DNA of 32,000 nucleotides, taken from positions 348,846 to 380,845 of the forward strand of contig NZ_AQWL01000001.1 in the NCBI RefSeq assembly GCF_000376425.1, given 5' to 3'. The position numbers were made by a program, and so were the translations under genes. Positions 8,799-17,033 of this stretch are shown piece by piece (within the stretch, counting starts at the first letter, position 1; each line of letters starts with the position of its first letter). The notes beneath the pieces were generated by a model. It saw nothing but the letters and a program-made list of their open reading frames with translations. It ran no database searches and had not been told where the DNA came from. The DNA comes from Thiobacillus denitrificans DSM 12475 (lineage in GTDB: Bacteria > Pseudomonadota > Gammaproteobacteria > Burkholderiales > Thiobacillaceae).

Positions 8799-9233
8799 AT
8801 GTCGAATGGGGTGAGTTCGTTCGCGCAAGGCGTGCGAGAGCTGTTTGTAGTCGCGACGGTATTTTCTTTGTTTACCGTAATTTTTTACGGAGCAAACGCC
8901 GCTGCAAACAATCAAGGATTCAAAGGGTGGTCTTGGTATATAAATCAAGCACTTTTCGACAGTGCAGAAGAAGCCTGTAAGGCCTACCCTCCCTACAATT
9001 ACACGTACTCCCCTAATACAAACTGTTGTTATTTTGAGTTTACTGGAGTGTTGGCCAACCCGGCCTATCCCCAGTACAAGGACTGTCAATTTGCGATTGT
9101 CAACCTGACTGATCCGTTATACAACGATCCATCCAAAAGCAGACTTACGGTTTATCCATACTTCGACACTGTCTCTGGTAGAACGCAGGTAATTCGTGCC
9201 CGACAACGCCCAATCCAATTACGATCGGCATAG
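8799..9233 (+). CDS. signal-peptide N-terminal segment of the Rhs protein, out of frame with the core (probable frameshift)
   Basis: ATG preceded by GGGGAGGGAAG. Sec-like signal (LFVVATVFSLFTVIFYG-ANA|AANN). Four Cys. The ORF terminates at 9233, inside the region where the rhs frame is already open (from 9182). Confidence 0.55.
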   Translation: MSNGVSSFAQGVRELFVVATVFSLFTVIFYGANAAANNQGFKGWSWYINQALFDSAEEACKAYPPYNYTYSPNTNCCYFEFTGVLANPAYPQYKDCQFAIVNLTDPLYNDPSKSRLTVYPYFDTVSGRTQVIRARQRPIQLRSA

Positions 9234-12200
9234 GCAATAAGTTTCTAGCTGAGACCGATAGTAATACCAGCACACAAACGCTGACTCTGCGACGCTATTA
9301 CAACAGCGTATCGCCTGTGACTACTAGCTTTGGAGTGAGTTGGCGGCACTCATATAAACGTCAAATTTTCTTGAGTACGTCAACGGCGGTGACAGTGAGA
9401 CGTCCTGACGGAAAGTCACTTAACTTTCAACTGAGCGGCAGCACTTGGATTGGTGACGCCGACATTGCCGATACCCTAGTCCAACTTTCCAGCTCCGCTG
9501 GCTGGCGCTACACCATGGCCGCCGACGACTCCGTCGAACTCTACGATGCGAGTGGTAAGCTGCAATCACTCACCGACCGCGCCGGCCGCACCGAAACTCT
9601 AACTTACAGCGACGGCACCGCGGGTACTAATGGCGGCTACGTCCTCGACGCCTTTGGCAGCCCGACCCTGGCCGTTCTTTCCGTCGGCCAATTGATTCGC
9701 GTCACCGACGCTACCGGCAACGTCCTCAATTTCGGTTACGACGCCTTGTCCCGCATTATCAAGCTGACCGATCCTTCCGGCGGAATCTACGCTTACGTTT
9801 ACGACACAAACGGCAATCTCGTCTCCGTCCAGTATCCCGACGGCAAGAGCAAGACCTACCTATACGAGAACCCTACTTTCCCGCATGCCCTAACCGGCAT
9901 CGTTGACGAGAATGGCGACCGCTACGCCACCTACCGCTACGACAGCCAGGGACGCGCCTACGACGAAGACCACGGCGGCTCGGTCGATCACTACAATCTC
10001 GCCTACACCACGGACGCCAATGGCAACCCCGTCTCGACCACCGTCACCGACCCCATGGGTACCCAGCGCACCTACAACTTCACTACCATATTGGGTGCCG
10101 TCAAGAGCACCGGCGTCTCCCAGCCCGGCGGCTCCGGCTGCAGCGCTGCGTCCTCCGCCATAGCCTACGACGCCAATGGCAACGTCGCCAGTCGCACTGA
10201 CTTCAACGGCCACACTACCTGCCACGCCTACGACCTGACGCGCAACCTCGAAATCGCCCGCGTCGAAGGCCTGGCATCCAGCACCAACTGCCCGAGTAAC
10301 CTCGCTACCTACACCCCCACCGCCAATAGCGTCGAGCGCAAGATACTCACCCAGTGGGACAGCCGCTTCCGCCTGCCCGTCAAGATCACAGAGGCCGGTC
10401 GCGAAACCAGCACCGTCTACGACAGCCGTGGCAACCCTACCATCCGCAGCATCAAGGACCTCGCCAGCGGCCAGACTCGCACCTGGAGCACCAGCTACAC
10501 CTACCATGCCAGCGTTCCCGGCGTCCTAGTCCAGAAAATTGAAGACGGCCCGCGCACCGACGTCAGCGATCTCACCACCACAGACTACTACGCCCCCGAC
10601 GAGAACTGCACCGGCGATCCCCTGGGCTGCCGTGGCCAGCTCAAGCAGATCACCAATGCTCTCGGCCACATCACAACCTATGACGAATACGACGCCAACG
10701 GCCGTGCCCTCCGGATCACCGACCCCAACGGCCTCGTCAGCACTTATACCTATAGTCCGCGCGGCTGGCTCGAAACCCGCAGTGTCGGCGGTGAGCTGAC
10801 CCGCTTCGACTACGACTACGTCGGCCAATTGATCAAACTCGCCCGTCCTGACGGCAGCTACGTCAGCTTCGAATACGACCCCGCCCACCACCTCACCACC
10901 ATTGTCGACCAGGACGGCGGCCGCCTCACTTACACCTTCGACGCCATGGGCAACCGCACTCATGAAGCGATCACCGGCCTCGGCGGCAGCACCGTCTACT
11001 ACGCTCACAGCCGCACCTTCGACGCCTTGGACCGCCTGTGGCAGGACATCGGCGCCGCCAACCAGACCGTCACCTACCAGTACGATGCCCAGGGAAACCT
11101 GAAACAGATCGACGGCGCCCGCACCGACGTCGCCGACGTCACCAGCCACGGCTACGGCGCCCTCGACCGCCTCATCCAGACGCTGAACGCCGACGGCGGC
11201 GTCGAGCAATACAAACCCAACACCCTCGGCCAGGTCACAAACGTTGTCGATCCGGCCAACCAGGCCACCGTCTACACCCGCAACGCCTTCGGCGACATCG
11301 TCCAGACCCAGAGCGCGGGCACCGGCACCACCACCCGCACCTTCGACGGAGCCGGCAACACCAAGACCGAGACCGACGCGCGGAACGTGACCGCCACCTA
11401 TAGCTACGACGCCTTGAACCGGCTTGTCCAGAAACAGAGCAGCCAGAGCGGTGCTCCGGTCTACCAGTATTTCTACGACGACTGCGGCAAAGGCTTCCTG
11501 TGCTGGGTACAGCGCAACGGCAGCTTCCACCTTTACTTCAGCTACGACCTACACGGCCGGCAGACCTACCAGCTATCCGCCATCGACAACTGGTACTTCG
11601 GTGTGTACAGCTACCGCCCCGGCGGACAGATCGAGACTGTGACTTATCCCAGCGGCCGCAGCGTCACCTACGGCTACGACGCCCAGGGGCGTGTCAGCCA
11701 GGTGAAGACCCGCAAGAACGCGGCCGACTCCGAGACCGTGCTGGCAAGCAACTTCAGCTATATCTACCCTTTCACCGGCCCGCAGAGCTTTAGCTACGGC
11801 AACGGCAGCGGGTTCTATCTAAGACGCGACCAGGACTATCGCCCTTCGTACCATTTCGACGGCCCGAGCTACAAACTCTATGGCCACGACCTCGCCGGCA
11901 ACGTTGCCAGCATCGTGGACATCAACAATACCCTGCTGACTTACGCCTATGACAGCACCGGCCGTCTCGTCTCCGCCATTGACAGCGCCGCCAACAGCTT
12001 CGGCAGCCTTGCCTGGGCTTACGACAAGAATGGCAACCGCCAGAGCGAGACCCGCAACGCCGGCACCATGCCCTACGTCTACAGCCCGCCCAACTGGCTG
12101 TATCAGGCCGGCAGCGATACGCGAACCAGAACCGCCTACGGCAACACCGCATCCACCAGCACTGCCAGCTTCACTTACGATGGCTACAACCGGCTTGCCA

Positions 12201-16423: not shown

Positions 16424-16556
16424 GCGGTGCTCCCGACATTAACCGCAATTGTTCTCTTGGCCTTACTCAAACGAAATAGTTAGTGATAAAGGAATCAAAC
16501 GGGCCGGGCTCACAATAAAAAAATGAACACAATCCCCCTCGTCTCTGAGCATGTTT

Positions 16557-17033
16557 ACGCCGCTCACCGCCATTGTCGACCAGGCTGGCAGCCGCCTCAC
16601 CTACACCCTCGACGCCATGGGCAACCGCAACCATGAAGCCATCACCCGCCCCGACAACACCTACGTCTACTACGCCCACAGCCGCACCTTCGATGCCTTG
16701 GGCCGCCTGTGGCAGGACATCGGCGCCGCCAACCAGACCGTCACCTACCAGTACGACGCCCAGGGCAATATGAAGCAGGTGGACGGCGCCCGCACCGACG
16801 TCGCCGACGTCACCAGCCACGGCTACGACGCCCTCGACCGTCTCATCCAGACGCTGAACGCCGACGGCGGCGTCGAGCAATACAAACCCAACACCCTGCT
16901 CAGCTACACTTACGACAGCACCGGCCGCCTAACCAGCGCCAGCGACAGCGCCGGCAACAGCTTCGGCAGCCTTGCCTGGACCTACGACCAGAGCGGTAAC
17001 CGCCAGAGCGAGACCCGCAGCGCCGGCACCATG
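16557..17033 (+). pseudogene. rhs core fragment with internal deletion and 3' truncation
   Basis: 16557-16898 parallels main rhs about 10887-11227, and 16899-17033 parallels 11936-12070. Homology ends at ...AGTM. No CT and no core tail. Confidence 0.85.

Follow-up and report, generated by a model that had tools for sequence, protein, structure and literature searches.

Orphan modules made up of a C-terminal toxin tip (CT) and its immunity gene, displaced from the C-terminal end of a large Rhs protein, have reportedly been described in Escherichia coli, Salmonella, and Dickeya. These enterobacterial Rhs proteins are PAAR- or VgrG-linked cargo of type VI secretion systems (T6SS), mostly with nuclease tips and cytoplasmic immunity proteins, and their orphan arrays consist of a big rhs gene, tips that keep only the 3' core and are accompanied by partner genes, CT and immunity genes of low GC content, core fragments, and repeats that recombine. 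The same array features are found in the locus described here, an Rhs polymorphic-toxin island at positions 8799 to 17123 (plus strand) of a 32-kb window of Thiobacillus denitrificans DSM 12475, the window being the whole stretch of 32,000 nucleotides (nt) that was analyzed. Unlike the enterobacterial systems, the island codes for a predicted signal peptide, for cysteine-rich and probably lipid-directed tips, and for polytopic membrane partners, and its main gene and one of its orphans are, as read, pseudogenes. We consider it probable that this is a decaying, horizontally acquired Rhs island with a Sec-exported shell, tips resembling phospholipase A2 (PLA2), membrane immunity proteins, and spare cassettes.

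Under the name Tox-PLA2, PLA2 tips on RHS proteins have already been catalogued, with predicted export by signal peptide (the "T2SS" route, after the type II secretion system); the catalogue names no immunity protein for them (Zhang et al. 2012, PMC3482391). The island resembles that group in having a predicted PLA2-fold tip on an RHS protein and a predicted signal peptide for export, and its tip CT1 matches bacterial and fungal structures of the 1kp4, 7ygk, and 4aup type. It differs from Tox-PLA2 in that each tip here has a membrane partner, in that a conserved family of partners accompanies CT2-type tips at other loci, and in that CT2 is nearest to animal secreted PLA2 (sPLA2) by sequence and to the parvoviral VP1 PLA2 by structure, not to the bacterial group. 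The first-pass annotation of this DNA had called the content of the locus not standard, which is right only in part, since such tips were already in the Tox-PLA2 catalogue, although without a listed immunity partner. Rhs orphan arrays and PLA2-type tips are thus both already catalogued, bioinformatically only, and no experimentally characterized Rhs-sPLA2 toxin was found in the searched literature. Two further systems are comparable in their target. The Tle1-5 effectors and their Tli immunity proteins are antibacterial, as is proposed for the tips here, with membrane lipids attacked from the periplasm and immunity located in the envelope; however, Tle1-5 are alpha/beta-hydrolase or phospholipase D enzymes delivered by the T6SS and Tli are soluble periplasmic proteins or lipoproteins, whereas the tips here are sPLA2-like, are carried by an Rhs shell, and have mostly polytopic partners. 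The Lipocone polymorphic toxins have diverse immunity proteins that are all membrane anchored, which has been read as a sign of extracytoplasmic action (Burroughs et al. 2025, PMC12419801); their lipid-directed cysteine-rich or helical tips and membrane-anchored immunity resemble what is proposed for this locus, but they form a separate toxin superfamily, and no sign was obtained that CT1 to CT4 are Lipocone domains, CT4 not having been compared with that family.

The elements of the island are as follows.

8799-9181, plus strand: 5' part of the broken main rhs gene, with a predicted Sec signal peptide and a four-cysteine N-terminal region; beyond it, the ORF continues in the wrong frame until a stop at 9233.
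9176-9180, plus strand: frameshift site, a 1-nt deletion; the window reads GGTAGAAC and a 99%-identical relative (L002) reads GGTAAGAAC.
9182-12715, plus strand: DUF6531 plug, YD/RHS-repeat shell, and RHS-associated core (Pfam, TIGR03696), ending in DPIGL-x18-DRLGL.
12716-13012, plus strand: CT1, 97 amino acids with 9 Cys, FCGSGW...ACHKHDICY, like bacterial and fungal secreted PLA2.
13020-13316, plus strand: imm1, 98 amino acids, three predicted transmembrane segments, immunity candidate for CT1.
13303-14007, plus strand: orphan 1, a core tail (13303-13674, about 120 codons) with CT2.
13675-14007, plus strand: CT2, a 9-Cys sPLA2-like domain, GNWCGPDWTGG...ACQSHDICY.
14051-14329, plus strand: imm2, 92 amino acids, three predicted transmembrane segments, immunity candidate for CT2.
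14331-14944, plus strand: core tail of orphan 2, about 200 codons, a pseudogene as read; the unit with CT3 extends to 15235.
14945-15235, plus strand: CT3, 96 amino acids with 11 Cys and the sPLA2 active-site motif KCCENHDNCY (CCxxHDxCY).
15247-15615, plus strand: imm3, 122 amino acids, three to four predicted transmembrane segments, immunity candidate for CT3.
15666-16136, plus strand: orphan 3, the final 46 core codons (15666-15806) with CT4.
15807-16136, plus strand: CT4, a Pro-rich linker and a domain of about 65 amino acids with 8 Cys and no HD dyad.
16136-16423, plus strand: imm4, a membrane protein of 95 amino acids whose start overlaps the CT4 stop (ATGA) and which is cut by a TAA at 16421-16423.
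16551-17033, plus strand: core fragment without a CT, joined from two pieces of the core (16563-16897, corresponding to 10892-11226, and 16889-17033, corresponding to 11926-12070).

The long frame of the main gene (9182-13012; 1277 codons, stop counted) matched PF05593 (RHS_repeat) at 3.4e-74 in 14 stretches, TIGR01643 at 1.3e-45, PF03527 (RHS) at 5.9e-16, and DUF6531 at 4.2e-12 (PF05593, PF03527, and DUF6531 being Pfam models), and TIGR03696 (Rhs_assc_core) matched it at 6.8e-25. Its core ends in ADPIGL-SGGINLYTYAEGNPVTKT-DRLGL, with a spacer of exactly 18 residues, after which the 97-residue CT1 follows; the second motif (DRLGL) has R where the DPxGL-x18-DPxGL pattern has P. The first-pass annotation had proposed just such a 1277-codon YD-repeat frame ending in this motif and followed by a CT, and had named an RHS-family hidden Markov model (HMM) search beforehand as one by which the proposal could be refuted; the strong matches bear it out. 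Its three core-tail-plus-CT units (13303-14007, 14331-15235, and 15666-16136) were found where it had placed them, as were the small membrane open reading frames (ORFs) after all four CTs, each with about three hydrophobic 19-mers, and the CT-less core fragment as the last element. Three of its descriptions need to be changed. It spoke of four displaced modules, and there are three, the fourth tip being attached to the main gene; it called the main rhs full length, and the start at 8799 sits in another frame, the gene being split by a 1-nt deletion at about 9179; and in the unit at 14331-15235, the core tail and CT3 are present but a single open frame is not, a TAG, an insertion of 2 nt, and a TAA lying within it.

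Direct-repeat analysis and nucleotide alignment gave the homology between the orphans and the 3' core of the main gene whose absence had been named as the other refuting outcome. The core tails of the displaced units are 73 to 86% identical in nucleotides, over 77 to 446 nt, to positions 12196-12693 of the main gene, and the units lack its N-terminal part. In orphan 1, positions 13316-13615 align with 12357-12656 (79%), and the Rhs_assc_core HMM matches at 1.6e-23. In orphan 2, positions 14414-14675 align with 12196-12457 (80%) and a 51-nt piece (14328-14378) aligns with 11651-11701 (80%). The nucleotide match of orphan 3 to the core end covers 15666-15742, with a TIGR03696 match at 3.7e-12. 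Core tails of 46 to about 200 codons had been described, and the measured lengths are 120, about 200, and 46 codons. The core fragment matches two separate core pieces (16563-16862 against 10892-11191, 90%; 16889-17033 against 11926-12070, 84%), and therefore about 700 nt appear to have been lost between them. Together, these results support reading the locus as an array of the Rhs polymorphic-toxin kind, in which CT/immunity cassettes have been displaced and a core fragment is present. The GC content forms a mosaic, with 0.63 to 0.68 in the flanks, 0.61 in the core, 0.66 in the core fragment, 0.46 in the N-terminal part, 0.44 to 0.49 in the CT and immunity genes (CT1, 0.485), and 0.55 in CT4. 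Imported Rhs tips usually look like this, and the mosaic supports the view that the island was horizontally acquired.

No single intact frame runs from a trafficking N-terminus to the tip of the main protein, because ORF 8799-9233 is split from frame 9182-13012. When an A is restored at about 9179, a continuous protein of 1404 amino acids results, in which the N-terminus is fused to the YD frame as in the relative. In the sequence as read, a -1 frameshift interrupts the main rhs after codon 127 and makes it a pseudogene. The first start downstream of the break is a GTG at 9317, and since its product would be without the signal peptide, the main toxin could not be made here in an exportable form. 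Programmed frameshifting at 9179 was considered and rejected, as the site lacks a slippery motif and the relative differs there just by an additional base.

The relative, L002, is metagenome derived (JGI 3300041015, contig Ga0427563_00070) and is 99.0% identical to the window over positions 3303-23780 (20.5 kb). The lesions below were scored by base-by-base comparison of the two.

9179, main rhs: deletion of 1 nt, in the window only.
14553, orphan 2: CAG to TAG, in the window only.
16421-16423, imm4: CAA to TAA, giving 95 amino acids against 115 in L002, in the window only.
10507, main rhs: deletion of 1 nt, in L002 only.
13762, orphan 1: insertion of 1 nt, in L002 only; the resulting truncated product is protein P0009.
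Near 14676 and at 14942, orphan 2: insertion of 2 nt and a TAA, in both the window and L002.

Orphan 2 is thus broken three times in the window, by the TAG at 14553-14555, by the 2 nt inserted near 14676-14677, and by the TAA at 14942-14944, which stands between DPKGLD and CT3, and as read it is a pseudogene. Every coding indel between the window and L002 that is not compensated falls within the island, and about 10 kb of flanking genes have none; the remaining indels are intergenic or form a compensating pair. Synonymous and nonsynonymous differences number 6 and 13 in the rhs frame and 2 and 6 in imm3; for GspF, GspG, BON, catalase, and ChrA in the flanks taken together, they number 36 and 14, which differs from the rhs frame (Fisher P = 0.005). 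For imm4, the longer form is presumed to be ancestral because a homologue in another sample has 121 amino acids. Because so close a relative carries different lesions, the island appears to be decaying, and the decay was taken as real because nonsense substitutions account for two of the lesions in the window and no lesion there sits within a long homopolymer. Judged by these lesions, the main gene, orphan 2 (three lesions), and imm4 (nonsense codon) are inactivated, and the island is in decay.

We considered the possibility that the locus is instead fully functional, with the lesions being sequencing or assembly errors, an intact 1404-residue Rhs-PLA2 protein, and the orphans as a live reservoir. 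The lesion at 9179 is a single-base deletion at which L002 is intact, a second assembly that carries this broken ORF was not found, and imm1 and imm2 are fully conserved at the protein level, all of which speaks for a working locus. However, the lesions at 14553 and 16421 are C-to-T nonsense substitutions and not indels, no lesion lies in a long homopolymer apart from an in-frame T run in imm3 (15281-15290; T10 in the window and T7 in L002, one Phe more or less in the first membrane segment), the uncompensated coding indels are confined to the island, nonsynonymous changes are in excess, and L002 bears independent lesions of its own. The numbering of the RefSeq proteins, with six accessions between GspF and catalase, is also consistent with an island that was largely left uncalled or flagged as pseudogenes. 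A fully functional locus is therefore unlikely in our judgment. In a decaying island, what is left of function in this strain is likely to be protection by imm1 and imm2, which differ from L002 by synonymous changes only, maybe against the toxins of relatives. An intact Rhs homologue of 1511 amino acids, 61% identical in protein sequence, is present in a Thiobacillus metagenome-assembled genome (MAG; L009), where it has a CT2-type tip, a partner of the DFP type (see below), and no orphan array.

The comparison with L002 also bears on the proposal of the first-pass annotation that the repeated core pieces are substrates for recombinational CT switching. In the L002 core fragment, ten consecutive sites that distinguish the paralogues (16694-16841) bear main-gene bases, and in the L002 main gene, three sites (10930, 10937, and 11157) bear fragment bases. 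Moreover, the same paired changes (T to C and G to C) separate the strains at 11027/11029 in the main core and at 16698/16700 in the fragment, which indicates a concerted change inside a putative conversion tract. These tracts indicate that the main core and the fragment have undergone gene conversion with each other, and they directly support the view that the repeated core pieces are recombination substrates; CT switching itself was not observed.

Three of the four tips carry the histidine-aspartate dyad motif typical of sPLA2 (CT1, ACHKHDICY; CT2, ACQSHDICY; CT3, KCCENHDNCY), CT4 is without it, and all four have 9 to 11 cysteines. A candidate Ca2+ loop was assigned by motif only, against YGCYCGxGG, as GNWCGPDWTGG in CT2 and FCGSGW in CT1; CT3 has no clear loop. 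CT1 matched PLA2G12 (1.8e-5) and Phospholip_A2_3 (7.9e-5) in Pfam, both below threshold, and its PDB matches were PLA2 structures (7ygk at 0.0066, 8k1w, and 4aup). In hhalign, CT1 aligned with the CT2 family with a probability of 94.6% (E value, 6e-8). It has a single close relative, P0227 (87% identity), among 5.8e9 proteins. CT2 belongs to a much larger family, with 313 cluster representatives at an E value of 1e-3 or less among 1.84e9, in which the domain is always C-terminal. The long members of this family are RHS/YD-shell or Ig/FN3 proteins with no PAAR, and the full-length genomic examples start with signal peptides. An alignment of nine sequences has GNWCGPDWTGG, H42, D43, Y46, and D68 invariant, with the pattern ...D..D.AC..HD.CY...CD, and H42 and D43 are still invariant among 73 sequences. 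The family profile matches the sPLA2 structures 1bun (1.5e-4) and 1mh2 (4e-5), aligned over PIDxLDxACxxHDxCY, the catalytic helix. An AlphaFold2 (AF2) model of CT2 from the 73 sequences reached a predicted local distance difference test (pLDDT) score of 94, and in a Foldseek search of the viral models in BFVD, parvoviral VP1 PLA2 domains made up nearly all of its top matches (probability, 1.0 at most; TM score, 0.45 to 0.55); an earlier and shallow AF2 model (pLDDT, 69) also had PLA2 on top, with nonsignificant E values. CT3 matched CT1 in blastp at 1.5e-5 in a tiny database, reached a probability of only 7.7% in hhalign, had no informative match in the PDB, and has relatives on RHS tails in five metagenome loci. 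CT4 had no PDB match, no match to the CT2 profile, and no similarity to the other tips, and its only CT-level homologues among 5.8e9 proteins were P0159 (99%) and P0160 (60%). Taken together, these comparisons suggest that at least two, and probably three, of the tips are sPLA2-like, with CT1 and CT2 being putative homologues of secreted PLA2.

Each tip is followed by an ORF of 92 to 122 amino acids with about three hydrophobic segments and a motif resembling a Shine-Dalgarno sequence upstream, at a spacing that ranges from a 1-nt overlap to 43 nt. The four products have no detectable similarity to one another. Similar pairs are found elsewhere. In other metagenomes, the CT1 homologue P0227 is followed after 6 nt by an ORF of 88 amino acids that is 65% identical to imm1, and the 121-residue homologue of imm4 (58% identity) follows the CT4 homologue P0160. 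Of imm2, identical copies are present in three other samples. In the CT2 family, the next ORF codes for a membrane protein of 95 to 126 amino acids in 14/14 intact loci, which are drawn from four phyla and include Verrucomicrobiota, Acidobacteriota, Gamma- and Betaproteobacteria, and Neisseria, and 13 of these 14 partners have the motif H...(I/L)DFPxSLL...G(T)xWW; this DFP-motif family weakly resembles DUF7942, below threshold. The partners of CT3-family tips elsewhere are lipoprotein-like or proteins with four transmembrane segments. The recurrence in other loci of the partners of CT1, of CT4, and of the CT2 family supports a membrane-embedded immunity, and we infer that the small membrane ORFs code for the cognate immunity proteins. 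The location of all the partners in the envelope would fit an attack on membranes that comes from the periplasm.

An alternative is that eukaryotes, be they protists, fungi, or hosts, are the target of the tips, in the manner of Tc-toxin TcC or teneurin-like proteins, and that the membrane ORFs are unrelated or accessory. Secreted PLA2 domains are indeed classic antieukaryotic toxins, the YD shell resembles the shells of TcB/TcC and teneurins, and the Tox-PLA2 catalogue gave no immunity protein (Zhang et al. 2012, PMC3482391). Yet every tip type has its own tightly linked membrane protein or lipoprotein ORF, the partner covaries with the tip across unrelated genomes (all of the CT2-family loci and the CT1 and CT4 pairs), which is the signature of toxin and immunity, and neither TcA/TcB genes nor TcB-propeller or SpvB domains were found in the rhs protein or its neighbors in the window. 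We therefore give little credence to a eukaryotic target and favor interbacterial toxins with membrane immunity.

The N-terminus of the main protein, coded by ORF 8799-9233, reads MSNGVSSFAQGVRE, with the hydrophobic stretch LFVVATVFSLFTVIFYG, and then ANA/A. Neither Pfam nor NCBIfam had any match in rhs residues 1 to 127, and no PAAR or prePAAR motif was present there; likewise, neither database revealed PAAR, VgrG, Hcp, or Eag chaperone genes in the window. Because of the predicted signal peptide, the many cysteines, and the lack of PAAR, the protein would be exported by Sec. The island could alternatively be a T6SS-delivered Rhs cluster whose machinery is encoded elsewhere, with the N-terminus as a transmembrane helix of the prePAAR type. 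The T6SS delivers most of the antibacterial Rhs toxins that have been characterized in proteobacteria, T6SS effectors that target lipids and have periplasmic immunity proteins are familiar, and the core-tail profile matches T6SS Rhs structures such as 8h8a, 7q97, and Tse5, although the shared core explains that match. This delivery is nevertheless improbable, in our view no more credible than a eukaryotic target, given the 127 N-terminal residues without PAAR or prePAAR, the lack of any T6SS gene in the 32 kb, the signal peptides and the Ig/FN3 or YD shells without PAAR in full-length proteins with the same type of tip, and the 9 to 11 cysteines per tip, which suggest an oxidizing compartment.

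Several points weigh against a Sec-exported, PLA2-tipped, and decaying island. The signal peptide was called by eye, and its n-region is without net positive charge beyond the N-terminus. An exact look-up of the frameshifted N-terminal ORF returned no second contig with the same break, and an assembly error at 9179 is possible; the gene-conversion tracts could in principle be a repeat misassembly in the metagenome-derived L002. The PLA2 models of Pfam stayed below gathering for every tip (PF06951, 25.2 against 34; PF09056, 23.7 against 29.4; PF00068, 18.2 against 32.1). The E values of the BFVD matches of CT2 were just 0.01 to 1, and a Foldseek search of the PDB with the model of pLDDT 94 returned no PLA2 among the matches, for which reason no fold identity is claimed from the PDB; for CT2 as a PLA2, the fold evidence is suggestive and the sequence evidence is good. 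The link of CT3 to PLA2 is motif based, statistically unsound, and not established, and CT4 is without an assignable function. An HMM built from the 14 CT2-family loci matched none of imm1 to imm4, so that imm2 stands outside the partner family, a mismatch that fits the divergent C-terminal third of CT2.

We infer the enzymatic activity, the immunity, the export route, and the target of the tips from sequence. The ancestral unit would have been an Rhs protein of about 1404 amino acids with a signal peptide, a small Cys-containing N-terminal domain, a DUF6531 plug, a YD shell, the core, and an sPLA2-like tip. Three earlier or alternative tips, each with its partner gene, would have been displaced downstream, and a recombined core fragment would close the array. 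The shell would enclose the tip, and the aspartyl autoprotease motif DPIGL-x18-DRLGL would free it, as in established Rhs biology. CT1, CT2, and probably CT3 would then hydrolyze the membrane phospholipids of neighboring bacteria from outside the cytoplasm by means of a His-Asp dyad and a Ca2+ loop, and the polytopic inner-membrane partner encoded just downstream would block its cognate tip at the membrane.

Related loci in other contigs were noted in passing. CT2-type tips are cut by premature stops in a Verrucomicrobiae MAG (L018, 6001-6099) and in an Enterobacteriaceae MAG (L019, 6001-6159), and pseudogenized tips of this type are therefore not peculiar to Thiobacillus. Y1 transposase genes of the IS200/IS605 type adjoin orphan PLA2-type cassettes in two contigs (L023, 998-1681; L024, 44-727), and in L009 a transposase-like ORF (6862-7602) lies beside an orphan PLA2-type CT/immunity cassette; transposases beside cassettes in unrelated metagenome contigs hint at another route by which cassettes may move. 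A contig from an ENA metagenome (L003, 1-14053) bears a long Rhs array with at least 12 small downstream ORFs, including two cassettes of the Tlde1 type (L,D-transpeptidase effector), a Sel1-repeat ORF, and a CT2-type PLA2 orphan with a DFP-type partner.

The genes around the island are those of T. denitrificans, with flanking proteins identical to RefSeq entries (GspF, WP_018076548; catalase, WP_018076555; GyrA, WP_018076564). An origin from a plasmid is unsupported, as megablast of 8500-17200 against plasmids gave no match. Three features outside the coding array deserve mention.

527-8054, minus strand: T2SS-like operon, divergent from the island, with a secretin bearing N-terminal TPR and STN, unannotated ORFs, GspE, GspF, and GspG.
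17034-17077, minus strand: remnant of 44 nt at the right border of the island, matching 4901-4944 in the 3' part of the gspE-like gene upstream with 84% identity.
22845-23211, minus strand: transfer-messenger RNA (tmRNA) gene with tag peptide ANDENYALAA, which explains the GC dip at 22.5 to 23.5 kb.

The operon could belong to a T2SS or to a system resembling the mannose-sensitive hemagglutinin (MSHA) or type IV pilus. When all of the other PLA2-Rhs loci, whose flanks are short, were searched by tblastn with the secretin, GspE, GspF, and GspG, no match was obtained; the operon as an export partner is unsupported rather than refuted and is kept as a lead. The right-border remnant codes for AIAEILLLTDALRELIV within a minus-strand ORF (16982-17140) and is fused straight onto the end of the core fragment; it appears to be what is left of a second secretion-ATPase gene that the insertion or rearrangement of the island destroyed. 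Downstream of the island lie BON, catalase, chrA, EamA, the tmRNA gene, HAD, methyltransferase, amidohydrolase, gyrA, and serC; tmRNA genes are frequent integration sites. Between GspF and catalase, the RefSeq numbering leaves room for just six protein accessions (WP_018076549 to WP_018076554), against 10 or more plausible ORFs in the 9-kb island; judging from this, the public record probably lacks annotation for much of the island or flags it as pseudogenes.

A broader proposal, which we put forward only tentatively and would not expect to hold in all its parts, is that the locus represents a distinct class of antibacterial delivery by Sec-exported, T6SS-independent Rhs proteins, in which disulfide-rich sPLA2-like tips act on the envelope lipids of neighboring bacteria and are met by new polytopic inner-membrane immunity proteins, including the DFPxSLL family of Acidobacteriota, Verrucomicrobiota, and Pseudomonadota, with CT4 as a new mini Cys-rich membrane toxin and with passage of the outer membrane maybe by way of the T2SS-like operon. 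In annotations, the main gene should carry a pseudogene flag, and the small ORFs should be called as genes. The link between toxin and immunity that is missing from the 2012 Tox-PLA2 catalogue would be provided by this locus and its relatives, and a small membrane-embedded partner implies that the toxin would act at the membrane from outside the cytoplasm. All of the assignable tips appear to belong to one PLA2-like superfamily, carried by an Rhs protein that is apparently of the signal-peptide type and not of the T6SS type. With different inactivating mutations in the window and in its 99%-identical relative, and with core repeats that appear to be still exchanging, the two together would provide a snapshot of the decay and recombination of an Rhs island.

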